In this document: in pieces, positions 16,258 to 25,568 of the stretch | How positions within the stretch are numbered: position 1 is the stretch's first letter | Layout: every line of letters starts with the position of its first letter | From: an uncultured Kiritimatiellota bacterium | Lineage (GTDB): Bacteria > Verrucomicrobiota > Kiritimatiellia > RFP12 > DVOR01 | NCBI GenBank assembly: GCA_944391085.1 | Contig: CALXSE010000002.1 | Coordinates: 10,450-74,449 of the forward strand | Reading direction: 5' to 3' | DNA: 64,000 nucleotides | Translations under genes and position numbers: made by a program | The notes under the pieces: model-generated | Told to the model about the DNA's origin: nothing | The model's database searches: none | Seen by the model: the letters and a program-made list of their open reading frames with translations, nothing else

Positions 16258-16472
16258 GCTCCCGTGAATTCTTCGTTTCCATGAAGCCTTCACGCATGGC
16301 TCCAAAGAAGAGACCCGGTCAAAAGCACGCAGACTTTCCCGGATTCAGGAACCTGCCTGGGCCCGATGGAGGCAGTGTGTGTACGACTGCGTCGTGAGAG
16401 GGTGTCAAGCGGCACAAGTAGGACGCAGCCTTCCCAAATGCGTCCGTCGTGATTGGCGGCCCATGGGGAGTG

Positions 16473-16481
16473 TGCTATACT
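16473..16481 (+). promoter_or_regulatory. Extended -10 promoter TGCTATACT (leaderless configuration)
   Basis: Ends 6 nt before the ATG at 16488. Confidence 0.45.
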
Positions 16482-16487
16482 GGGCAC

Positions 16488-17063
16488 ATGAACTGGTTGC
16501 GACGGCGATATGTGCGGAAGGCTTTGCTGCTGGGCTTTTTGGCGGTGGCGGGCATTTTGGCGGCGGAGGTCTTTCAAGTCCTGGGCGGGAAGGAGCCTGA
16601 GGAAGTGTTGCGGGCATTGCACGCGGAGTTGGCGATGTCGCAGTCGATGGAGGTGAACGGCCAGACGGTGACCGCGGATGTGTGGCGTCTGCCTGAAACG
16701 TCAAGCGCGGATCCGTTGCGGCGGTTGCGCGACCCGCTCCTGATCGTGGGGCGGATGGTGTATGTGTTCCATGAGGATGTGCGGCCGATGCGGGGGTCTT
16801 GCATGTGGCCGGAGGATTTGCCGGCGTGGGATTTCAGGCCGGATTATGTGGTGGACACCGGGATGGCGCGGTTCGTGAACGGTGTCGCGGACGAATCCCC
16901 CGGCGCGGCGTTGGAGACGCTGGCGGCGCGCGCGCAGGCACAGGGGTGGGAAGCGTTGGGGGGCAATGTCTGGCGAAAGGGAAGGTTGACGCTGTTCGCC
17001 CATGCGGCAGAGTCGCGGCGCGGGACGGAGGCCGTGATGATCGTGACGTCCGAGAGGGACTGA
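16488..17063 (+). CDS. Hypothetical membrane-anchored protein heading the Tad cluster
   Basis: Internal ATG of ORF 16449..17063. Begins MNWLRRRYVRKALLLGFLAVAGILAAEVF (one N-terminal TM helix). Its stop lies 3 nt before cpaB. I recognise no motif. Confidence 0.55.
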   Translation: MNWLRRRYVRKALLLGFLAVAGILAAEVFQVLGGKEPEEVLRALHAELAMSQSMEVNGQTVTADVWRLPETSSADPLRRLRDPLLIVGRMVYVFHEDVRPMRGSCMWPEDLPAWDFRPDYVVDTGMARFVNGVADESPGAALETLAARAQAQGWEALGGNVWRKGRLTLFAHAAESRRGTEAVMIVTSERD

Positions 17064-17066
17064 GGC

Positions 17067-17873
17067 ATGAAGCAGAAGATCATTTTGGCGGCGTCGGTGG
17101 CCATTGGGCTGCTGGCCGCATTCTTGACGGGCTCATACATCGCGGCGCGGGAGCGGACGGTGGAGGCTGAGCGCGCGGCGTTGGCGCGGCGGTATCGGAC
17201 GGTGGACGTGGTGGTGCCGGCGGAGAACTTGCCGGCGGGGACGACCTTGCAGATGGATGACCTGCGTCTGCGCGCGGTGCCGGAGAACGCGCTGAGCGCG
17301 CAGACGATCCGGGCCACGCCGAACATCGCGATGCGGCTGGTGGGGCGGACGCTCGCGATGGGGGTGGAGGCCGCGCGGCCATTGCAGTGGAGCGACGTCG
17401 AGGGCGGCGCGCCGGAGGCGCGCGGCCTGGCGGGGATGCTGAGGCCAAAGATGCGCGCGCTCTCAATTTCGGTGAATGGCGCCGCGAGCGTGAGCAACAT
17501 GGTGCGCCCGACCGACCATGTGGATGTGTTGGGGACGTTCACGCTGCCCAGCAAGTCCATGCCCGGCGAGGCGGAGTTGGTGACGATGACGATCCTGCAG
17601 GATGTGCTGGTGTTGGCGACGGGGCAGGAGACGGCGCAAAGCGGCGGGGTGGGGGGGAATTACTCCCTGGTGACGCTGGAGGTGACGCCGCATGAGGCGG
17701 AGGTGTTGACCTTCGCCGAGCAACTGCGCGGACGCCTGACGCTGGCCTTGCGTAATCCGGAGGATCTGCATTATGAGACGGAGCTGCCGCAGGTGAACTT
17801 CGAGCAGATCCGGGCGACGCTGGAGGGGCTCAACGAAAAGCGCCAGCAGGAAATCCTGCGCAAGCGGCGGTGA
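17067..17873 (+). CDS. cpaB: Flp pilus assembly protein CpaB/RcpC
   Basis: N-terminal TM helix, SAF-like segment (VVVPAENLPAGTTLQMDDL), and a C-terminal RcpC-type beta domain (MRALSISVNGAASVSNMVRPTDHVDVLGTF...VTLEVTPHEAEVLTFAEQLG). Confidence 0.85.
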   Translation: MKQKIILAASVAIGLLAAFLTGSYIAARERTVEAERAALARRYRTVDVVVPAENLPAGTTLQMDDLRLRAVPENALSAQTIRATPNIAMRLVGRTLAMGVEAARPLQWSDVEGGAPEARGLAGMLRPKMRALSISVNGAASVSNMVRPTDHVDVLGTFTLPSKSMPGEAELVTMTILQDVLVLATGQETAQSGGVGGNYSLVTLEVTPHEAEVLTFAEQLRGRLTLALRNPEDLHYETELPQVNFEQIRATLEGLNEKRQQEILRKRR

Positions 17874-17877
17874 GGGG

Positions 17878-19569
17878 ATGCGGATGGATTACCTCGTCAC
17901 ATTGGCCATCCCAGGGCAGCCCGTGCGGCAGGTGCCGATGCCGTGCGGCGCGTATGTGATTGGGCGCGGGGCCTCGTGTGCGCTGCATATTGAGGATGCC
18001 AGCGTCAGCGAATTGCACGCGAAGCTCATCCTGACCCCCGGCGACGCCTGGGTGGAGGATCTTGGTTCCTCGAACGGGACGGTGGTGAACTCCCAGCTGA
18101 TCACGGATACCACGCGCCTTTCGCCGGAATCCATCGTCTCCATCGGCTCGACCGTCTTCCGCGTCCAGCCCCGCACGGCGGCGCCGGCCCAAGCGCCCGC
18201 GCCCCAGGCGGCCCCCGCCCCGCATCCCCAGCCCCCACCAGAGCCCAAGCCCGAGCCGGAGCCGCAGGACAGACGCGCCGCGGTGCTTCGGGCGGAGGTC
18301 AAAGGACAACTGCACGAGGAGCTGGTCAAACGCCTTGACCTCAAGCGCCTGGCCACGAGCGACATCTCGGCCGAGGAATTGGGGCGGCGCGTCCGTGAGA
18401 CGCTACGCGCCATCCTTGCGGAGGTCACGGCGCGCGGCGCTTTGCCGCCAGGCTTGGCCCCGGAGACGCTGGTGGAGGAATTGTACGACGAATCGGTGCG
18501 GTTGGGGCCGGTGGAACGCTTTTTGGCGGATGACACCGTCACCGAAATCATGATCAACGGGCCCCGGAACGTCTACGTGGAGCGGCACGGCAAGCTGGAG
18601 CTGACGGATCAGACCTTTATGGACGAGGCCAGCGTGATGGCCGTGATCGAGCGCATCGTCGCGCCGTTGGGCCGCCGCATCGACGAGAGTCAGCCCTATG
18701 TGGATGCGCGGCTGCCGGATGGCTCGCGCGTCAATGCGATCATCCCGCCCCTCTCGCTCATTGGGCCATGCGTGACCATCCGCAAGTTCGCCAGGCGCGT
18801 GCTGACGGCGGAGGACTTTGTGCGGTTCGGCACGTGGACGCCGGCCATCGCGGATTTCCTGCGGGTGTGCGTGCAGCTGCGCAAGAACATCATCGTGGCG
18901 GGCGGCACGGGTTCCGGCAAAACGACGCTCCTGAACGTCCTTTCCGGCTTCATCCCGCACAGCGACCGGATCCTGACCATCGAGGATGCGGCCGAACTGC
19001 GCCTCAACCAGCCGCACGTGGTGCGCCTGGAGGCGCGCCCGCCGAACATCGAGGGCAAGGGCGCCGTCACCATCCGCGACCTGGTGCGCAACGCCCTGCG
19101 CATGCGCCCAGACCGCATCATCGTCGGCGAGTGCCGCGGCGGTGAGACGCTCGATATGCTCCAGGCGATGAACACCGGCCACGACGGCAGCCTCACCACC
19201 GTCCACGCCAACAGCCCGCGCGACGTCATCAGCCGACTGGAGACGATGGTGCTCATGTCCGGCGTGGAGCTGCCGAGCCGCGCCATCCGCGAGCAAATCG
19301 CCAGCGCGGTGAACATCATCGTCCAGGAATCGCGACTGGCGGACGGTTCACGCCGCATCGTCGCGGTCTCTGAGATCACGGGCATGGAGGGACAGCAGAT
19401 CGTCATGCAGGATCTCTTTGTCTTCCGTCAGACGGGCGTCGACGCCGACGGGCGCATCTTGGGCGCGCTTACGGCCACGGGCGCGATGCCGACCTTCTAC
19501 GACACCCTTGCCGCGCGCGGCGTTTCGCTCGACCCGGCACTCTTCCAACCCTCTGGGGGCGCGCATTGA
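17878..19569 (+). CDS. cpaF: FHA-domain-fused Tad secretion ATPase (CpaF/TadA)
   Basis: The N-terminal GRGASCALHIEDASVSELHAKLIL...DLGSSNGTVVNSQLI is an FHA domain. A Pro-rich linker follows, then a CpaF core with Walker A (GGTGSGKTTLLN), Asp/His boxes and IVGECRGGE. Confidence 0.9.
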   Translation: MRMDYLVTLAIPGQPVRQVPMPCGAYVIGRGASCALHIEDASVSELHAKLILTPGDAWVEDLGSSNGTVVNSQLITDTTRLSPESIVSIGSTVFRVQPRTAAPAQAPAPQAAPAPHPQPPPEPKPEPEPQDRRAAVLRAEVKGQLHEELVKRLDLKRLATSDISAEELGRRVRETLRAILAEVTARGALPPGLAPETLVEELYDESVRLGPVERFLADDTVTEIMINGPRNVYVERHGKLELTDQTFMDEASVMAVIERIVAPLGRRIDESQPYVDARLPDGSRVNAIIPPLSLIGPCVTIRKFARRVLTAEDFVRFGTWTPAIADFLRVCVQLRKNIIVAGGTGSGKTTLLNVLSGFIPHSDRILTIEDAAELRLNQPHVVRLEARPPNIEGKGAVTIRDLVRNALRMRPDRIIVGECRGGETLDMLQAMNTGHDGSLTTVHANSPRDVISRLETMVLMSGVELPSRAIREQIASAVNIIVQESRLADGSRRIVAVSEITGMEGQQIVMQDLFVFRQTGVDADGRILGALTATGAMPTFYDTLAARGVSLDPALFQPSGGAH

Positions 19570-20450
19570 CGGCTCTCTTTTGGTTCGCGTCGGTGTTCGG
19601 CGGCCTGGCCGCCGGGGGGATGGCCTGGTGCCTTCTCTCGTCGTTTTCAGACAGCGCCGCGGCGGCGGCGGATTCCTATGAGGACGACCTGTCGCGCAAG
19701 CTTGAGGCGATGTTTCTTTTCGTTCCCGCGCGGCGTATCGTGGAATTGGGATGGATGGCGGCGGGCGTGGTTTTCCTGGTGGCGATGTTGCCTTTTTGCA
19801 GACTCGAGCCGCCGTGGGTGCTGCCGGTGGGGTTGGGCGTGTCGCTGGCGTTGGCGATTGGCGCCTTCTTCCTGCCGCGCGTGGTCGTGAACGTGCTGCG
19901 GGCCCGGCGCCTGGAGCGCTTCGACCTCCAGCTCCTCGAGGCCTTGCCCATGATGTCCAACGCTTTGCGCGCGGGGTTTTCCATCAACCAGGCGTTCGAG
20001 AGCGTCGCCGAAGGCATGGACGCGCCCATGCGCCAGGAAATCTCCCTGTTCCTTCAGCAACTGCGCGTGGGCGTCTCGTTCACGGAGGCGCTCGAGGCGC
20101 TTGACCGCCGTGTGGGGAGCGAAGATCTCACGCTTGTCTGCACGGCCATTGACATCGCCCGCCGCTCGGGCGGCAACCTCACCGAGATTTTCGACTCCAT
20201 CGCAGAGACGATCCGGGCGCGTCTGCGCATCCACCAACACGTTCGCACGCTCACGGCCCAAGGCCGCCTGCAGGGGCTTGTCATCGGCGCCATGCCGTTT
20301 TTGCTGGGCATCGGCATGGCGATCTTCAAGCCTTCGCTCATGTTGCCTTTCGTCTGTTCCCTGGCCGGCGCGGCCACGCTGCTGGCGGTTGCCGTGATGG
20401 TGGCCCTGGGCGGCCTGCTGATCCGTAAAATCGTAACCATAGACGTGTGA
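19566..20450 (+). CDS. tadB: Tad platform protein TadB (T2SS-F domain)
   Basis: TTG start overlapping the cpaF stop. Polytopic protein with a T2SSF-type cytoplasmic domain (LPMMSNALRAGFSINQAFESVAEGM...). Confidence 0.85.
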   Translation: MTALFWFASVFGGLAAGGMAWCLLSSFSDSAAAAADSYEDDLSRKLEAMFLFVPARRIVELGWMAAGVVFLVAMLPFCRLEPPWVLPVGLGVSLALAIGAFFLPRVVVNVLRARRLERFDLQLLEALPMMSNALRAGFSINQAFESVAEGMDAPMRQEISLFLQQLRVGVSFTEALEALDRRVGSEDLTLVCTAIDIARRSGGNLTEIFDSIAETIRARLRIHQHVRTLTAQGRLQGLVIGAMPFLLGIGMAIFKPSLMLPFVCSLAGAATLLAVAVMVALGGLLIRKIVTIDV

Positions 20451-20451
20451 G

Positions 20452-21342
20452 ATGTCCGCTGCGCTCTACTGGATTTCCCTTCTTGGATGGGCCCTTTGCG
20501 CGGGCGGCCTGGCCTGGTATGTCTTGGGTTATGCCACGCAAATCACCTACGTCACCTTGGCGGATGGCCGCCGCCAGGCGCGCGCGTTGCCTTTGGCGTT
20601 CCGCCTGCTGTTGCCGTTGGCGCCGAACCTCGAGCCGCTCCTGCGCAAGCCGGCCTTCGCCCCCGCCACGCAAAACGCCTCGTGGCAGCTTGCCGCAGCA
20701 GGTTATGAAGGGTTGCTTTCGGGGCGTGAATTCGTCGCCGTGAAGATGCTACTGCCGGCGCTGGCGGCGCTTGTCCTGGCGCTTCTCTTTATCCCGCTTG
20801 GGGCGGAGGCCTTCCCGTTCTGGCTCATCGGCGTGCTGGTGGCGTGGGTGTGGCCGCTCCATTGGCTCCGCAAAACCCGCGCCGCGCGTGCCAGGCAAAT
20901 CGTCCGCGCGTTGCCTTTCGTGCTGGATCTGCTGACGCTCTCGGTGGAGGCGGGGCTTGATTTCATGGGCGCGGTGCAGCGCAACTGCGAACGCCGCAAA
21001 ATGGATCCCCTGAACGAGGAACTGTTGCGGATGCAGCGCGAAATCCAGGTCGGCACCACGCGAAAGGTCGCCCTGCGCAACCTCTCCGAGCGCGTCCGCA
21101 TCCCGCAGCTGCGCACGCTTTGCGCCGCCCTCATCCAGGCCGATGAGCTGGGCGTGAGCATCGGCTCTATCCTGCGCATTCAGGCCGACCAACTGCGTCA
21201 GGAGCGCTTTGAACGCGCCGAGAAGCTCGCCCACGAGGCGCCGACTAAAATGCTCTTTCCCCTGCTTCTCTTCATCTTCCCCGCGACCATCGTCGTCTTG
21301 CTCGGGCCGCTCTTGGCCAACGCCTTGGGGGATTTTCTGTGA
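20452..21342 (+). CDS. tadC: Tad platform protein TadC (T2SS-F domain)
   Basis: LPFVLDLLTLSVEAGLDFMGAVQRN and ELGVSIGSILRIQADQLRQERFERAEKLAHEAPTKMLFPLLLFIFP are typical TadC strings. Confidence 0.85.
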   Translation: MSAALYWISLLGWALCAGGLAWYVLGYATQITYVTLADGRRQARALPLAFRLLLPLAPNLEPLLRKPAFAPATQNASWQLAAAGYEGLLSGREFVAVKMLLPALAALVLALLFIPLGAEAFPFWLIGVLVAWVWPLHWLRKTRAARARQIVRALPFVLDLLTLSVEAGLDFMGAVQRNCERRKMDPLNEELLRMQREIQVGTTRKVALRNLSERVRIPQLRTLCAALIQADELGVSIGSILRIQADQLRQERFERAEKLAHEAPTKMLFPLLLFIFPATIVVLLGPLLANALGDFL

Positions 21343-21587: not shown

Positions 21588-22877
21588 ATGGTTCCGCAAT
21601 GGTTCATTGAGGAAAAGCGCGACGGCCGAGAGCACGCCGAGGCAGACTTGCGTGCGTGGGTGCGTGGGATCGCCGACGGCTCGCTCCCTGATTATCAAAT
21701 CGCCGCCTGGCTCATGGCCGCTTACCTTAACGGGCTCTCCGAGGCCGAAACCGCCACGCTCACCGACGCCATGATGCGTTCGGGCGAGTGCCTGGCCTGG
21801 GATCTCCCTGCCCCGACCGCCGACAAGCACTCGACCGGCGGGGTGGGGGACAAGATTTCCCTGCCGCTGGCCCCCGTCTGCGCCGCGCTCGGCTTGGCCG
21901 TGCCCATGATTTCCGGGCGCGGGTTGGGGCTCACCGGCGGCACGCTCGACAAGCTCGAGTCCATTCCCGGTTTCAACGTGCGCCTTTCCGTCGCCGATTT
22001 TCGTCGCATTGTCGCTGACGTCGGCTGTTGCCTTATCGGCCAAACCGACACACTCGCGCCGGCGGATCGACGCCTCTATGCCCTGCGCGACGTCACGGGC
22101 ACTGTCCCGAGTATCCCGCTCATCACGGCCTCAATCATGAGCAAAAAGCTTGCCGAGGGGGCCCAACATCTGCTTTTTGACGTCAAGTTCGGCTCCGGCG
22201 CCTTCATGCGTACCCGCGCCGACGCCCACCGATTGGCCGAATCCCTTATCGCCACGGGCCGCCGCCTGGGCCGCCGCTGTCGTGCGCTCATTACGGACAT
22301 GGATCAACCTCTTGGCCGCGCCGTCGGCAACGCATTGGAGGTGCGTGAGGCGCTCGAGACATTGTCTGGAAGAGGCCCCTGGGATATCCGCGCACTCACC
22401 ATCGAGGAGGCTGCGCATCTCGCCCTTTCCGCCGGACGGTTCGCGGATCTGCCCCTGGCCCGCCGCGCCGCGGCGAAGGCATTGGCCGATGGCTCTGCCC
22501 TCCGCAGGTTCCGGGCGATGGTCGCTGCCCAAGGCGGCACCCTCGACGCTCCGCTCCCAACGGCCGAGATCCGTGTGCCTGTGCCCGCGCCGCGGGGCGG
22601 ATTTATCGAACACGTCAATGCCGAAACCATTGGGCGCGTCGCTCTCGAGCTGGGCGCCGGACGCGTCAAGGTCACCGATACGCCCAATCTCGCCGCGGGT
22701 TTGGACGCCCTGCTTCAGCAAGGTGACGTCGTGACGCCAGGCCAACCGCTCTGTTTCCTTTGCGCCGACACGGAAAGACGTGCCGAGTCTTTGGTGGAGC
22801 AGACGCTCGCGGCATTCACGATCACGGATTCCCAGCCGCCGGAACGCGAGCTTATCGCTGAGACTCTGATAGGTTGA
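21588..22877 (+). CDS. deoA: Thymidine / pyrimidine-nucleoside phosphorylase
   Basis: Contains DKHSTGGVGDKISLPLAP and the GRGLGLTGGTLDKLESIPGF motifs. A GAGGAGGA SD lies upstream. Confidence 0.9.
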   Translation: MVPQWFIEEKRDGREHAEADLRAWVRGIADGSLPDYQIAAWLMAAYLNGLSEAETATLTDAMMRSGECLAWDLPAPTADKHSTGGVGDKISLPLAPVCAALGLAVPMISGRGLGLTGGTLDKLESIPGFNVRLSVADFRRIVADVGCCLIGQTDTLAPADRRLYALRDVTGTVPSIPLITASIMSKKLAEGAQHLLFDVKFGSGAFMRTRADAHRLAESLIATGRRLGRRCRALITDMDQPLGRAVGNALEVREALETLSGRGPWDIRALTIEEAAHLALSAGRFADLPLARRAAAKALADGSALRRFRAMVAAQGGTLDAPLPTAEIRVPVPAPRGGFIEHVNAETIGRVALELGAGRVKVTDTPNLAAGLDALLQQGDVVTPGQPLCFLCADTERRAESLVEQTLAAFTITDSQPPERELIAETLIG

Positions 22878-23001
22878 ATGTCAAGGCACAACGGCCTCAG
22901 CAAACTCCAAAAGCGGGACAAAGTCCCAAAAAGACAGGTTTAGCAACAACAGAACTGGACGTTAACCGAACTCATCAACTACCAATGAAATATAACAAAT
23001 C

Positions 23002-23047
23002 GTCAGACAAATCGCAAGTAGCAAAACGGCATTTTTTGTCAGACAAA
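23002..23047. repeat. Direct repeat pair GTCAGACAAA (23002-23011 and 23038-23047), iteron-like
   Basis: Two exact 10-mers lie 36 bp apart, immediately upstream of the hairpin at 23058-23092. Confidence 0.6.
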
Positions 23048-23057
23048 AACCGCATTA

Positions 23058-23092
23058 TTTTTTGGAGCCTATTAGTGTAAGGCTCCAAAAAA
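23058..23092. promoter_or_regulatory. Hairpin TTTTTTGGAGCC-(tattagtgtaa)-GGCTCCAAAAAA, candidate nick-site / double-strand origin
   Basis: A perfect 12-bp stem with an 11-nt AT-rich loop. The T-run precedes and the A-run follows on both strands, so it is not an intrinsic terminator. Confidence 0.45.
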
Positions 23093-23345
23093 GCAAAAGA
23101 GGCCAACCCACGCCCAAACGTCACACCACGCCCGCTCATCCCCGTTCGCGATCGTGCGGGCTTTTTGGGGCCCGCACTGCTCACGGGGACCCCACGGCCG
23201 CAAGCGGCCTATTCGCGGGCTTGTGCGGACATTTTGGCGTGAGGGCAGGATGTTCCCCTCCGATAAGGAGAGAGGCGTTCACCAAGGCACCAGACCCCAC
23301 ATAAGCACCGATGAACGGACAGACAAGGAAGGGTAGGGGCGAACG

Positions 23346-23392
23346 CGGCATTGCCACACGCGCCCAGCAAGCGGGCTCGTGTGGCAATGCCG
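23346..23392. repeat. 15-bp-stem inverted repeat CGGCATTGCCACACG / CGTGTGGCAATGCCG with structured 17-nt loop
   Basis: Exact complementarity read directly from the sequence. The loop itself can pair (GCCC/GGGC). Confidence 0.7.
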
Positions 23393-23415
23393 GTGATCGC
23401 CCCCTGCCTAACCCA

Positions 23416-23589
23416 TCAGAAGCCGCAGAAGGCCATCAGTGAAGCCACGGCATTTTCAGCCGCCCTACATTCATCAGCAGGACGTAAACCTGCCTCACTC
23501 ACGGCTTCAACGACCGAAGCCACGACGCAAAGCGCACCGAACAACTCACCTACCGAAACCTCACCGCCATTCTCATCAAACCGTGCCAT
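23416..23589 (-). CDS. Small acidic hypothetical protein (57 aa) downstream of rep
   Basis: MARFDENGGEVSVGELFGALCVVASVVEAV..., with GGAGGGG 9 nt upstream of the ATG at 23589. It overlaps the rep 3' end. I recognise no homology. Confidence 0.3.
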   Translation of the reverse strand: MARFDENGGEVSVGELFGALCVVASVVEAVSEAGLRPADECRAAENAVASLMAFCGF

Positions 23590-24169
23590 TTCCATGCCCC
23601 TCCGAACCATTGCGGAACGTCTTACTCCGTGCGGCATTGTAAAGCTCTTTGAAATAAAGCCAATTATGCGGGGGAATGCCGCCCGAGGCCATCAAGTCCT
23701 CCCAAGACTGACCACTTGCCACCGCCGCATTGACAAGCGCCCAAACCTTGAAAGGGCGCATATCAATCATTTTCACATCCTCAAGCAGCCGTTCCCTACA
23801 CGTTGCCCCGAACTCTTCCAACGCATAAGAAAAGCGCCGCGACTGCCCCTTGGAAGCCAAATAACCCGCGTTGTGGGAACTGTACAGGAACCAATCCGCA
23901 AACTTTGAGACCCGAAAAGGAAGAACACCCCTAGGCTCGCTTTCCCCCGGCACAAGTTCGCGGAATTGCTTTTCCAGTTCCATCGTATCCAACACCCGAG
24001 CGGGAAGCATACACACATGGATATGCGCTTTCTTTTCGTCATCCTCGGGTTGATGCACAACCCAATAGGCCAACTCAATCACGCCCGAAGCCCGCAAGCG
24101 TTCGCACGTCAGACTGAGAAAAGCAGGGGTATTAAAAGAAACGGTGCTTACAAGTCTTCTCGTTCTCAT
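23576..24169 (-). CDS. HUH rolling-circle replication initiator, pMV158 RepB-like (Rep_2-type motif order)
   Basis: 197 aa. VVHQPEDDEKKAHIHVCML matches the pattern H..D then KKAH-U-H-V, and FLYSSHNAGYLASKGQSRRFSYALEEF holds the Tyr candidates. Motif spacing resembles RepB (HDKD...KKAHYHV...LYLTH...HVYD), quoted from memory. Confidence 0.7.
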   Translation of the reverse strand: MRTRRLVSTVSFNTPAFLSLTCERLRASGVIELAYWVVHQPEDDEKKAHIHVCMLPARVLDTMELEKQFRELVPGESEPRGVLPFRVSKFADWFLYSSHNAGYLASKGQSRRFSYALEEFGATCRERLLEDVKMIDMRPFKVWALVNAAVASGQSWEDLMASGGIPPHNWLYFKELYNAARSKTFRNGSEGHGNGTV

Positions 24170-24365
24170 TGTCTATCGTCGCCTTTGCAGTACGGACGAG
24201 TTCGGACGCGCCGTGAATTGTGGCCATATAGGAATGCAGAACCATACGCACCCACTCAGAGGGCGTTTGCCCCGTCATCCTAGAAGACGACCAAATGAAC
24301 CTTGCCAAAGGCTCATCCAAGCGGACTGTAACCCGCTTTATCAAGTTCTTTTCATACATGCTCAT
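24132..24365 (-). CDS. Ribbon-helix-helix (CopG/MetJ-type) DNA-binding protein
   Basis: Starts at MSMYEKNLIKRVTVRLDEPLARFIWSSS...TPSEWVRMVL, the beta-strand then helix pattern of RHH proteins. GGAG lies 5 nt before the ATG at 24365. It overlaps the rep start by 38 nt, like the copG-repB operons. Confidence 0.6.
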   Translation of the reverse strand: MSMYEKNLIKRVTVRLDEPLARFIWSSSRMTGQTPSEWVRMVLHSYMATIHGASELVRTAKATIDNENEKTCKHRFF

Positions 24366-24385
24366 AGGAACTCCAAAAGGTGCCA

Positions 24386-24399
24386 TTTTGTCGACAAAA
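24386..24399. promoter_or_regulatory. Perfect 14-bp palindrome TTTTGTCGACAAAA, candidate RHH operator
   Basis: Lies 21 nt upstream of the RHH ATG, inside the AT-rich promoter region. It overlaps the first copy of the 12-bp direct repeat CAAAACAAAGAA (24395-24406 and 24422-24433). Confidence 0.4.
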
Positions 24400-24516
24400 C
24401 AAAGAAACGAAATAAACAAAGCAAAACAAAGAAGTTAGACAAAATAAAAAGCACAATTCAACAGAACTGCGCTTATGCGACGCAATGCGTTCCGTGCTTT
24501 AACCCACTCCCCTACG

Positions 24517-24543
24517 CAGCAGGCAATGCCTCATTGCCTGCTG
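24517..24543. repeat. Perfect 12-bp-stem hairpin CAGCAGGCAATG-cct-CATTGCCTGCTG
   Basis: Read directly from the sequence. There is no T-tract on either side, so it is not a canonical terminator. It lies between the element's right repeat and the tilS stop. Confidence 0.6.
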
Positions 24544-24686
24544 AAATGGTTCTTCCAAGGGAGTCTTTTGGGAAGTGGTGATACACACTGCATTGAGAAT
24601 TGGCGAACCTGTTCGTAAGAACCTATCCGCCATCCCCACGAGGCAAAAGGGGAAAACACGAGTGACCAAAAGTCTGTCGCGGACAA

Positions 24687-25568
24687 TCAGAGGCGAGCCC
24701 AAGCGGATTCGCCGATTCGCTTCACGGTAAGTCCACCCGTGACTTGGGTGACGCTGCCAAGCTGCAGCGCAAGGAGCGCCTCGGTTTGTTGGCGCGTCAA
24801 TGTCGTGGGTAACCAGGCGCGCAGGGCGCGACGAATGAGCACGGGGTCTGTCCCCGGGCGGAGCTCAAGCGTCTGTTCGGAACCGGCAAAGACCGCGGCC
24901 TGTGCCAAGCGGTTGAGACAGGCGGATTCCTCGGCCAACAGATCCGCGGCCGCGTTGGCGCCGGAGGTGAAATGCGGCAGGAGCGGCACGAGAACGCGCC
25001 GAATGGCGTTGCGCGGGATGGAAAGGTCTGCGTTGGAGACATCTTCCACCCAGGATTGCCTTCGGGCACGGAGCCACGCCACCTGGGCCGCATGCGTCTC
25101 GTCGAGCAACGGCCTCCAGATACGCAGTTCCGGGCTCCCCGGCAGTCCCCCACCCCAACCAAAACTGGAGAGCCCTTCTGCGCCGCAACCCCGCGCCAAC
25201 CGCAGCACCAGGTTTTCCGCGCGGTCGTCCGCCTGGTGCGCCAACAGGATGCCCACACATCTTGACGCATGCAACTCTTGCGCGAAAAAGGTCATCCGGG
25301 CAGACCGTGCCAGACTTTCCTTGGACCCCCGCTCAGTCGGCGCCGCCACACGCCGTCCCACGCGCAAAGGCACCTCCCGCGCCGCACAAAGGCCCCGGCA
25401 GAACGCTTCCGCCTCATCGCCATTCTCGTCCGCGAAGGCATGATTGAAATGCAAAGCCACCGGCCGCACTCCCGCTTCCAGACATTTCAGCAACAAAGCC
25501 ACCGAATCGGCCCCGCCGCTCAAGCCTACCGCCCACCGCCCCTTTCGGATGTCCTGTGGCAACCTCAC
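24687..25568 (-). CDS. tilS: tRNA(Ile)-lysidine synthetase
   Basis: PP-loop motif VGLSGGADSVALL; GTG start; typical TilS length without the C-terminal extension. Confidence 0.9.
   Translation of the reverse strand: MRLPQDIRKGRWAVGLSGGADSVALLLKCLEAGVRPVALHFNHAFADENGDEAEAFCRGLCAAREVPLRVGRRVAAPTERGSKESLARSARMTFFAQELHASRCVGILLAHQADDRAENLVLRLARGCGAEGLSSFGWGGGLPGSPELRIWRPLLDETHAAQVAWLRARRQSWVEDVSNADLSIPRNAIRRVLVPLLPHFTSGANAAADLLAEESACLNRLAQAAVFAGSEQTLELRPGTDPVLIRRALRAWLPTTLTRQQTEALLALQLGSVTQVTGGLTVKRIGESAWARL

Follow-up and report, generated by a model that had tools for sequence, protein, structure and literature searches.

The space between deoA and tilS in the window, a stretch of 64,000 nucleotides from an uncultured Kiritimatiellota bacterium, probably holds a complete minimal rolling-circle replicon that lies in the chromosomal dif site and was integrated there by the Xer recombinases of the host. 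The element is an IMEX (integrative mobile element exploiting Xer) with a presumed dependence on Xer, a known kind of element represented here by a very small member in a Kiritimatiellae-like host. IMEXs and their one-armed, dif-like attP sites are established (PMC4246890, PMC12715192). A first-pass annotation had described a chromosomally integrated, pMV158-like rolling-circle mini-replicon without an integrase of its own, and the structural model of Rep, the operon order, the origin hairpin and the free circular relatives described below all agree with this core reading.

Profile searches confirmed the two flanking genes: deoA (21588-22877, plus strand) matches Glycos_transf_3, Glycos_trans_3N and PYNP_C, and tilS (24687-25568, minus strand) matches the PP-loop family and has homologs named TilS. 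The mobile element proper is 1,512 bp long (22958-24469) and does not fill the whole 1.8-kb space, as had been supposed; the chromosome accounts for approximately 70 bp next to deoA and 200 bp next to tilS. The island 22878-24686 has an overall GC content of 52.2%, and a recount of the four 60-nt lines starting at 22981, 23041, 24361 and 24421 again gave 35% GC for each. By GC count, the low values sit in two non-coding end regions (31-36%), the genes of the element are at 49-56%, and an inner non-coding stretch (23093-23415) is at 64%. The contrast with the flanks is confirmed, but the flank value of 67% was slightly high, deoA being at 65.7%, tilS at 65.4% and the window at 65.9%. The neighboring genes are housekeeping, pilus or polysaccharide genes. 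In gene tables and profile searches, the element and about 6 kb of DNA to its left and right contained no integrase, transposase, relaxase or phage structural gene, in line with the earlier statement for the island, and the three ORFs of the element gave no integrase, transposase or relaxase match in Pfam, PHROGs or NCBIfam.

Both ends of the element are dif-type Xer sites. On the tilS side, attL (24456-24483, minus strand) is a canonical 28-bp site that reads, on the minus strand, GCGTCGCATAA (the chromosomal XerC arm, 24473-24483), GCGCAG (the central region, 24467-24472) and TTCTGTTGAAT (the element-derived XerD arm, 24456-24466); it is comparable to the dif site of E. coli, GGTGCGCATAATGTATATTATGTTAAAT (PMC2731167). 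On the deoA side, attR (22944-22972, minus strand) is a 29-bp hybrid site composed of AGTTCGGTTAA (an element-derived, degenerate XerC-like arm, 22962-22972), the 7-nt spacer CGTCCAG (22955-22961) and TTCTGTTGTTG (the chromosomal XerD arm, 22944-22954). The two sites have in common the 11-bp direct repeat CAACAGAACTG, which consists of the inner XerD arm and 3 nt of the central region and occurs at 22947-22957 and 24459-24469 with a spacing of 1,512 bp. The pattern CGCATAA-N6-TTNTGTT has attL as its only match in the 64 kb, where 0.02 matches are expected by chance. The XerC-like arm, GAGTTC[GA]G[GTA]TAA, is kept in element copies from three chromosomal contexts. Two features count against the Xer reading: the XerD arm of the clade, TTCTGTTG, differs from the usual TTATGT, and in most copies attP and dif agree at just 1-3 nt of the central region.

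How the replicon integrated had been left as a question, with Rep-mediated, Xer-mediated and illegitimate recombination as the options. The dif sites at the junctions make Xer-mediated recombination the most likely of the three, and the element lacks an integrase probably because it borrows XerC and XerD from its host. Against this reading, the window ORFs tested included no gene for XerC or XerD, nor could one be tied to the host genome. GC skew and gene orientation over the 64 kb showed no clear replication terminus or skew switch; locally, the genes converge on the att site.

The rep gene (23576-24169, minus strand) encodes a RepB(pMV158)-like HUH rolling-circle initiator of 197 aa, which consists of a nuclease/origin-binding domain at the N terminus and a helical domain at the C terminus. 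The ORF is present at 24169-23576, and the motifs H-Q-P-E-D-D-E, KKAHIHV, FLYSSH, GYLASK and RFSYAL all lie inside it in the order first described. Residues H39, E42, D44, E45, H49, H51, Y96, H99, K107, R111 and Y115 are invariant in an alignment of 47 family members. The 197-aa protein had no significant match in Pfam, PHROGs, NCBIfam or the PDB sequences, and a profile search of the PDB sequences did not retrieve RepB. The membership of Pfam Rep_2 (now Rep_OBD, PF01719) that had been proposed did not hold in the Pfam check, in which the protein had no PF01719 match at E<=1; among the relatives, 22 of 47 matched PF01719, all below threshold (best E 1.8e-4).

The AlphaFold model of Rep (pLDDT 88.5) was compared with known structures using Foldseek. 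Ranks 1-8 were all pMV158 RepB (3dky, 3dkx, 4u87, 8amt, 8amu), with a probability of 1.0 and E values of 2.5e-5 to 4e-4; the alignments covered about 210 columns and both domains for the full-length chains, and TM was 0.63 against the isolated nuclease domain. The named best matches in the viral library were CRESS-virus Reps. When Rep was aligned to RepB with hhalign, KKAHIHV fell on KKAHYHV, WFLYSSH on MYLYLTH and Y115 on Y115, with a weak score (E 0.018). All six active-site residues of RepB, taken from PMC5030251, are kept in order in Rep: H49, H51, Y96 and Y115 aligned to RepB H55, H57, Y99 and Y115, and H39 and E42, which lie outside the hhalign alignment, are matched by position only to RepB H39 and D42 (PMC5030251). 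Rep forms a family of its own, with the predicted fold of pMV158 RepB.

The double-strand-origin hairpin (23058-23092, minus strand) has a perfect 13-bp stem, TTTTTTGGAGCCT/AGGCTCCAAAAAA, and the loop TACACTAAT, the presumed nick site of Rep. Nearly all family members on the circular and inovirus-like contigs have such a hairpin, with an invariant ACACTAATA loop; this loop, on the strand that encodes Rep, occurs in every close copy, in the circles L005-L015 and L020-L021, and in 41 of the 59 JGI loci. The stem co-varies: in 37 of 43 distinct contexts the arms are complementary at 6/6 positions, with 23 different arm sequences, compared with 4.4% in the control. In free relatives, about 110-130 bp separate the hairpin from the RHH gene downstream of it; in the integrated copy the hairpin is at the deoA-side (right) end, where it is present once, about 100 bp inside the element and not at a junction. 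An HUH transposon of the IS200/IS605, IS91 or Helitron-like type, which would carry hairpins or ori/ter signals at each end and insert beside a short target motif, was considered and rejected, since the element has a single such hairpin, internal and some 100 bp away from one end, and is bounded by dif-like sites. Two copies of TTTGTCTGAC adjoin the origin hairpin (23002-23047, minus strand; plus-strand GTCAGACAAA at 23002-23011 and 23038-23047) and are also present in L001 and L004; by analogy with the bind locus of pMV158 (PMC5030251), these direct repeats are candidate Rep-binding sites.

Two further hairpins lie between the origin and ORF3. One (23154-23177, minus strand), GTGCGGGC-N8-GCCCGCAC, is common to the window, L002 and L037, and L004 carries a compensatory change, GCGCGGGC/GCCCGCGC; a terminator-like site was scored near it on the plus strand, and it may serve as an operon terminator or a single-strand origin. 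The other (23346-23392), in the GC-rich, variable segment, has a 20-bp stem that is 95% complementary and a 7-nt loop, and also appeared as a self-match in BLAST; a single-strand origin is one candidate role for it, and its segment is absent from the L001-lineage copies.

Upstream of rep, the RHH-like gene (24132-24365, minus strand) encodes a 77-aa protein that corresponds to CopG by position, and its 3' end overlaps rep by 38 nt, as first described. The overlapping order of the two genes is kept in relatives. The matches of the 77-aa protein were weak but consistent: all fell in the RHH superfamily, and none reached a curated threshold. DUF6290 was matched by 7 of 7 RHH members (best E 1.6e-4), and the other matches in the superfamily were CopG_antitoxin (4.3e-5), NikA-like (8.4e-5), RHH_1 and TacA; PDB matches were RelB, SeqA-N, DUF1778 and NikR. 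The pattern R-V-T-V-R-L...G-x-(S/T)-P-S-E-x-(V/L)-R is kept among the RHH-like proteins. The leader (24366-24455, minus strand) is AT-rich (31% GC) and probably has a regulatory role as the promoter region; it contains a 27-nt tandem repeat (24395-24448), the palindrome TTTTGTCGACAAAA (24386-24399) and the iteron-like GTTAGACAAA (24434-24443).

The third ORF that had been noted, ORF3 (23416-23589, minus strand), is also present and encodes a small, acidic, hydrophobic protein of 57 aa as called, or 73 aa from an upstream ATG (23637). It had no match in Pfam, PHROGs or NCBIfam, and is 65% identical to a 64-aa ORF of L004. In the ThiF-lineage copies L002 and L035 its place is taken by a 147-aa ORF, with only a short C-terminal stretch in common.

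Rep belongs to an unannotated family that is known from metagenomes only. We collected 96 homologs, and an exhaustive search gave 738 clusters (about 740 at 50% identity). The comparison with plasmid and virus databases that had been proposed found no match for the family in PLSDB, the INPHARED phage genomes or IMG/VR. Terminal overlaps equal to assembler k-mers were seen in 27 of 59 JGI contigs and in L005-L008 and L011-L014, and indicate circles of about 1.07-2.5 kb and 4.5-5.0 kb. The circles of about 1.1-2.5 kb are plasmid-like by size and gene content, and include circles that carry only the RHH and rep genes. The larger circles (4.5-5 kb) are inovirus-like and carry Zot/pI-like genes, which in L005-L008 (phrog_197, E 5.5e-11; phrog_20922, phrog_1675) accompany the same Rep/origin module. 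The element itself was rejected as an inovirus, since it has no morphogenesis ATPase (pI/Zot), coat or adsorption gene. Because the free circular relatives show no dif-like site under the filter used, Xer use may be confined to the sub-clade of the window element.

Close copies of the element (Rep 87-92% identical) lie between equivalent pairs of dif-like sites in two other chromosomal contexts. In the ThiF-adjacent context (L001, L035-37, L050) the sites are TGGTCGCATAA-TGCGAA-TTATGTAAAAT and AGTTCGGGTAA-CGCGCTA-TTATGTAAAAC; in L004 the element has an EF-P/TPR gene pair on one side and a hydrolase gene on the other. Compared with E. coli dif (PMC2731167), these sites agree at 22-24 of 28 positions, and a canonical 28-bp attL is paired with a hybrid 29-bp attR in the window, L001, L004, L035-37 and L050 alike. 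The architecture of 1.44-1.54 kb, complete with the pair of att sites, the origin hairpin and intact copies of the RHH and rep genes, recurs in three host contexts, whose flanks differ in GC content (67% in L001, 49-54% in L004), and the XerD arm of the element tracks the dif of its host, being TTCTGTTG here and TTATGTAA elsewhere. Between integrated copies, dN/dS was 0.07-0.2 for rep, measured against copies in other hosts, and 0.1-0.2 for the RHH gene; both genes are under purifying selection. The strain L023 has the same sequence as the window in deoA, in tilS and in the chromosomal flank on each side, yet its element differs at 47 positions (3.05%), all within 23045-24416; its rep is truncated to 135 aa.

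We also considered whether the element is a fixed, decaying remnant of a dif-integrated filamentous prophage, immobile and non-replicating, that lost its structural genes; its entry would still have been through Xer, but it would have ceased to function. Its Rep/origin module does have relatives in 4.5-5 kb genomes that carry Zot/pI-like genes, rep is truncated in one variant, and ORF3 and the inner segment vary between lineages. All of about 20 same-species contigs carry the element at the same place. With regard to the circular form that had been suggested for a search, no contig with the attP (circle) junction was seen among the contigs searched; one Logan contig ends exactly where the attP junction would branch, which is a hint only. 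Against a remnant stand the intact architecture in three contexts, the low dN/dS, the XerD arm that follows the unusual dif of the host, and two element variants 3% apart in identical flanks. The free circles of 1.1-2.5 kb with RHH and rep genes only point the same way, and demonstrate that the minimal form is a viable lifestyle. We therefore regard a decaying prophage as unlikely, and favor the complete replicon.

In a sister species (TilS 81% identical) the synteny of tilS and deoA is kept. Comparison with related genomes for an empty junction had been proposed, and here the outcome was divided: the tilS-deoA position of the sister species has one dif-like site and no Rep element, but within the same species the position was always occupied, with no empty site in the approximately 20 contigs or in a pattern search of JGI metagenomes. 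The site of the sister species, ATGTCGCATAA-GCGCGG-TTCTGTTGTTT, has a homologous left flank, is homologous to attL, and matches the dif rebuilt from the XerC arm and central region of attL and the XerD arm of attR; the latter arm agrees with TTCTGTTGTTT at 10 of 11 positions.

These junctions also bear on whether the HUH Rep of the element could have carried out integration itself, by nicking and joining at an origin-like chromosomal sequence as AAV Rep and the IS91/IS200-type HUH transposases do, the likeness to dif being incidental. The element does encode an HUH nuclease and no other recombinase, and HUH enzymes are capable of strand transfer (PMC5030251). The anatomy of the junctions nevertheless makes this very improbable, because the nick-site hairpin is single and about 100 bp inside the element, ACACTA is in neither junction, the two-arm Xer geometry (11+6/7+11) is found at both junctions in three independent contexts, and the sister species has a matching single site. 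Least probable of all is a native, compositionally odd intergenic region whose ORFs and dif-like strings arose by chance, or a passive Xer cassette without replication function, since, although the window proteins have no significant match in any curated library and the element is fixed in the species, the 96 homologs and 738 clusters, the confident RepB-like fold, the 1.5-kb unit in unrelated chromosomal contexts in hosts of differing GC, and the conserved and co-varying origin hairpin refute it in practice.

For the Xer-integrated replicon we propose the following life cycle. In the circle, the two AT-rich ends would be joined into one continuous control region, in the order origin hairpin, direct repeats, dif-mimicking attP, promoter/operator and RHH-rep operon. 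The attP would combine a good XerD arm with a degenerate XerC arm, the two being separated by a 7-nt spacer, and XerC/XerD of the host would recombine it with the chromosomal dif, GTCGCATAA-GCGCAG-TTCTGTTGTTG. Crossover on the XerD side of the central region would give the canonical dif at attL, on the tilS side, and the hybrid 29-bp attR on the deoA side; recombination of attL with attR would release the circle. The RepB-like HUH protein is predicted to nick the ACACTAAT loop of the extruded hairpin, on DNA carrying TACACTAATAG, to begin rolling-circle replication, and the RHH protein may repress the operon as CopG does in pMV158. The element has no transfer genes, and so would probably need assistance to spread from cell to cell, such as packaging by a related filamentous phage.

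It is possible, although we put this forward only tentatively, that the element is a self-sufficient, helper-free 'plasmid-IMEX' of Kiritimatiellae-like bacteria that alternates between a rolling-circle plasmid state and residence at the chromosomal dif, its attP evolving together with the unusual dif of the host. A large, undescribed family of minimal replicons (about 1.1-2.5 kb, RepB-like fold, ACACTAATA origin) would then have the element as its integrated tip, and very small filamentous phages would share the module of this family. At 1.5 kb the element would, on this reading, be smaller than any autonomous integrative replicon described so far, to our knowledge.

TLCphi and RS1, IMEXs that are replicon-only satellites of filamentous phages in V. 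cholerae, resemble the element in that they are small, consist of a rolling-circle module and regulators, and have neither morphogenesis genes nor an integrase. RS1 is about 2.7 kb and TLCphi about 5 kb, whereas the window element is 1.5 kb, and their initiators are of the RstA or Cri type, whereas that of the window element is RepB/pMV158-like. The XerD arm is degenerate in the attP of TLCphi; here it is intact and the XerC arm is degenerate. No XafT-like factor was recognized among the element ORFs in Pfam, PHROGs or NCBIfam. The host of the satellites is proteobacterial and that of the window element Kiritimatiellae-like, and the dependence of the latter on a helper phage is only presumed. 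Both satellites are integrated at dif via host XerC/XerD (PMC4246890, PMC6744903).

IMEXs of the VGJphi type, and the one-armed, dif-like attP sites found in Vibrio inoviruses and in PM2-like phages, also resemble the window element in having a single double-stranded, dif-mimicking attP of about 29 bp, in being reversible in principle, and in regenerating a canonical dif at one junction (PMC4246890, PMC12715192). In VGJphi the identity with the dif central region is on the XerC side, with catalysis by XerC, whereas here it is on the XerD side; moreover, those elements, unlike ours, are complete phages of 6-10 kb. LME-1 of Legionella and the gonococcal genetic island are, like the element, non-phage and located at dif through the dimer-resolution system of the host (PMC9765430; PMC4246890 Table 2), but are tens of kb in size, with other replication and transfer functions and other recombinases (XerL in Legionellales).

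In its replication module the element can be compared with pMV158 (pLS1), which likewise has an RHH gene followed by an overlapping rep; the initiators of both measure about 200 aa and join an HUH nuclease domain to a helical domain at the C terminus (PMC5030251). RepB and Rep have equivalents of H39, D/E42, the HUH motif, the catalytic Tyr in a YLxH-like motif, and Y115, and in both replicons the origin precedes the operon, a hairpin loop holds the presumed nick site, and direct repeats lie close by. The sequence identity between RepB and Rep is just 15-20%, however, and Rep remains below the PF01719 thresholds; the origin loop is TACACTAAT here and TACTACGAC in pMV158. Unlike pMV158, the element has no mob gene or resistance gene. 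We know of no dif-like attP in pMV158, whereas the element is chromosomally integrated through one.

The missing integrase is probably explained by borrowing of the machinery that resolves chromosome dimers in the host. The range of IMEXs, described in the papers cited here mostly from Proteobacteria, is widened to an uncultured, Kiritimatiellae-like gut lineage, and the element points to the dif site of this lineage, with its atypical XerD arm TTCTGTTG. The analysis also uncovers an unannotated family of about 740 clusters in which rolling-circle replicons of about 1.1-2.5 kb and small inovirus-like genomes use one Rep/origin module. With its origin hairpin, two genes and 29-bp attP, the 1.5-kb unit is a convenient minimal system in which to study the needs of an IMEX, and vectors for bacteria that are difficult to manipulate might be built on it.

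The space between deoA and tilS (22878-24686) is as poor in GC as had been claimed: four 60-nt lines of it contain 35% GC each, compared with 65.7% in deoA, 65.4% in tilS and 65.9% in the window. Its neighbors had also been named correctly. The plus-strand ORF at 21588-22877 encodes a thymidine/pyrimidine-nucleoside phosphorylase, and the minus-strand ORF at 24687-25568 encodes a PP-loop protein whose homologs bear the name TilS. The element itself carries three minus-strand genes: a 77-aa ORF (24365..24132) and a 197-aa ORF (rep, 24169..23576) that overlap by 38 nt, and a small acidic ORF downstream (23589..23416). The first-pass annotation had described this arrangement, together with the absence of integrase, transposase, relaxase and phage structural genes in or near the island, and we found both as described. 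Direct scans of Pfam, PHROGs and NCBIfam gave no significant match for any of the three ORFs, a promoter and terminator scan gave signal no higher than background, and the sole Rfam matches, of hairpins to miRNA models, were insignificant. Between the dif site and the stop codon of tilS, the chromosomal flank contains a perfect inverted repeat of 12 bp with a 3-nt loop (24517-24543), a possible terminator of tilS. Immediately upstream of deoA, beside the dif site, is a Tad/Flp-type pilus gene set (16449-21342) with RcpC, an FHA-domain T2SSE ATPase and two T2SSF proteins. Filamentous phages commonly use type IV-like pili as receptors.

The 197-aa protein had been likened both to RepB of pMV158 and to the Pfam Rep_2 initiators. 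The second assignment did not hold, as the window Rep has no match to this domain (PF01719, now Rep_OBD) and 22 of 47 relatives match it only weakly. Likewise, neither the protein alone nor the family profile matched a Rep among PDB sequences. An AlphaFold model built from the 47-sequence alignment was confident (pLDDT 88.5), and its best eight PDB matches were all pMV158 RepB, either full-length or nuclease domain only (E 2.5e-5 to 4e-4), with a TM of 0.63 against the RepB nuclease domain. CRESS-virus Rep nuclease domains ranked after RepB, and the named matches in a viral structure library were likewise Rep proteins. For a profile alignment, a RepB reference sequence checked to be 100% identical to 3DKX was used. 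In this alignment KKAHIHV fell on KKAHYHV (the HUH motif, RepB H55/H57), WFLYSSH on MYLYLTH (catalytic Y99) and Y115 on Y115, the roles of the RepB residues being those of PMC5030251. Residues H39, P41, E42, D44, E45, H49, H51, Y96, H99, K107, R111 and Y115 of Rep are invariant in the 47-sequence alignment. These fold and motif matches, together with the PF01719 results, indicate that Rep is RepB-like in fold, motifs and size, as had been proposed, and forms a separate family by sequence. The 77-aa protein is a probable ribbon-helix-helix (RHH) protein, as had been proposed: its matches and those of its counterparts in relatives are weak but uniformly of this type (DUF6290, CopG_antitoxin, NikA-like, RHH_1, RelB, TacA, NikR and SeqA-N).

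The family has an origin hairpin on the Rep strand, which in free circles lies upstream of the RHH gene and whose loop invariably holds ACACTAATA. The stem sequence varies freely yet stays complementary across the family. When covariation was counted by script, the stem registers being one base apart in the MAFFT alignment, 6/6 pairs were present in 37 of 43 distinct contexts, with 23 different arm sequences, compared with 4.4% of control trials in which the arms came from different sequences. In the window element the hairpin (23058-23092) has the loop TACACTAAT on a 13-bp stem, with TTTGTCTGAC repeats next to it; the candidate nick-site sequence with the origin loop is TTACACTAATAGG. The combination of a hairpin loop and adjacent direct repeats resembles the double-strand origin of pMV158: there, hairpin IR-I lies beside direct repeats and RepB nicks its loop at TACTACG/AC (PMC5030251). 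By analogy, Rep would nick at the hairpin loop.

Copies of the element with Rep 87-92% identical occupy other chromosomal contexts, one adjoining a ThiF gene on a contig of 67% GC (L001; also L035-37 and L050) and one (L004) with an EF-P/TPR gene pair on one side and a hydrolase gene on the other, in surroundings of 49-54% GC. Their DNA homology to the window copy is confined to ~22960-24481, and both borders of every copy are Xer-type sites. The left and right sites are TGGTCGCATAA-TGCGAA-TTATGTAAAAT and AGTTCGGGTAA-CGCGCTA-TTATGTAAAAC in L001, and GCGTCGCATAA-GCGCAG-TTCTGTTGAAT (24483..24456) and AGTTCGGTTAA-CGTCCAG-TTCTGTTGTTG (22972..22944) in the window; dif of E. coli is GGTGCGCATAA-TGTATA-TTATGTTAAAT (PMC2731167). 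At the left site, the canonical XerC arm and the 6-bp centre are preserved, and conserved element DNA follows the XerD arm; in the window, this site is the sole match to a core dif pattern in 64 kb (chance expectation 0.02). The XerC-like arm of the right site is degenerate and shows conservation among elements, and host DNA follows the XerD arm. Common to both window sites is the 11-bp repeat CAACAGAACTG, at a spacing of 1,512 bp. The predicted attP junction (circle or tandem) joins CAAAATAAAAAGCACAATTCAACAGAACTG to GACGTTAACCGAACTCATCAACTACC, the 29-bp attP being AGTTCGGTTAACGTCCAGTTCTGTTGAAT, and the predicted attB junction (empty dif) joins AAAGACAGGTTTAGCAACAACAGAACTG to CGCTTATGCGACGCAATGCGTTCCGTGC; the reconstructed dif is GCGTCGCATAAGCGCAGTTCTGTTGTTG.

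Whether the element had integrated through Rep, Xer or illegitimate recombination had been left as a question, which the border sites and a site in a sister species answer in favour of Xer as the most likely route. In this species, whose TilS is 81% identical, tilS and deoA are still neighbors, and a single dif-like site, ATGTCGCATAA-GCGCGG-TTCTGTTGTTT, has a homologous tilS-side flank. The site corresponds almost exactly to the XerC arm and centre of the window left site joined to the XerD arm of the right site, which points to a crossover on the XerD side of the centre and shows that the odd XerD arm TTCTGTTG is a property of the host clade. Relatives in other hosts carry TTATGTAA, which suggests adaptation of the XerD arm of the element to the host-clade variant. 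The sister species has no Rep element at this site, and no empty site was found in the same species. Elements that use the host XerC/XerD in such a way are IMEXs, and one-armed dif mimics are documented (PMC4246890, PMC12715192). Integration by Rep itself, or an HUH transposon, was rejected in view of the lone internal hairpin and the dif-like ends. A target-site duplication was likewise rejected for the 11-bp repeat, as it holds a homologous position across contexts and belongs to a two-arm Xer site. Within rep (minus strand, 23647-23674), a weak dif-like string, CCCCCGCATAA-TTGGCT-TTATTTCAAAG, encodes the conserved IPPHNWLYFKE, is found in L035 and L036 too, and is most likely a coding coincidence. 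No XerC or XerD was found among the window ORFs tested, and GC skew and gene orientation over the 64 kb gave no decisive terminus signal. In the sister species, ~1.5 kb between the dif-like site and deoA (L038 4700-6230; L039 4540-6070; L043 2190-3400) holds a hypothetical ORF of 200, 337 or 366 aa. The ORF has no Pfam match and a second dif-like site was not found there; the segment may represent a further dif-associated insertion.

Several features favour an element that is still active. Its origin and both att sites are intact, and dN/dS of 0.07-0.2 for rep and the RHH gene between integrated copies shows purifying selection. A second strain (L023) matches the window exactly in deoA, tilS and both flanks, but its element carries 47 differences, all within the borders, suggesting replacement or independent acquisition, not slow decay in place. 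Counted against activity are the rep of this 3% diverged variant, truncated to 135 aa (L023 7989-8396; window equivalent 23576-24169), and the presence of the element at the same site in all same-species contigs. No contig with a circle junction or an empty site was found, and the empty-site pattern GTCGCATAA-N6-TTCTGTTGTTGCTAAACC had no match in JGI metagenomes. Contig L024 ends at window position 22976, and L027 (22982) and L029 (22950) also break near the right site, attR. A coexisting attP junction (circle or tandem) in the L024 sample would make the assembly graph branch or break at 22976, so this contig end is a hint, but only a hint, of such a junction.

A large protein collection contains 96 Rep homologs, all metagenomic and none with a functional name or Pfam domain, and an exhaustive profile search with the Rep family gave 738 clusters (50% identity), of which 413 had E<=1e-30. 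Nothing related was found in IMG/VR or, by tblastn, in PLSDB plasmids and GenBank phages, and species-representative genomes gave four distant matches only, in Firmicutes-type MAGs. Distant members (32-43% identity) lie on contigs whose end repeats equal the exact assembler k-mer (29, 30, 55, 127, 141), and these contigs are therefore circular molecules. Many circles of ~1.07-2.5 kb belong to the family, and a circle of 1,976 bp, seen in several samples, has genes for RHH, Rep and DUF3846 proteins. Contig L010 (3,513 bp) holds 1.8 tandem copies of this plasmid, with two RHH genes, a full rep, a second shorter rep call and two origin hairpins, and represents a concatemer or else a wrap-around of the assembly. 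The Rep-family circular contigs L092, L082, L102, L081, L062 and L055 measure ~1.07-1.3 kb without terminal overlap; to our knowledge, such circles rank among the smallest replicons. A Rep homolog with 35% identity (L019 5965-6591), in an 88.9-kb Christensenella MAG contig, apparently lies within a larger inserted block, and no ACACTA hairpin was found at it; this could reflect another mode of integration, in Firmicutes. Other family genomes, of 4.5-5.0 kb, have Zot/pI-like morphogenesis genes, encode small hydrophobic proteins and resemble small filamentous phages. Because related genomes share the Rep/origin module, it is plausible that the element spreads between cells by a helper filamentous phage.

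Taken together, these data support an integrated pMV158-like mini-replicon without an integrase, as the first-pass annotation had proposed. The element is most probably a new and very small member of the known IMEX class; its replicon is of an undescribed RepB-like family, and its host is Kiritimatiellae-like. Rather than establishing a new principle, it offers a clean and minimal case from a new lineage and opens the way to a large family of tiny replicons that had no annotation.
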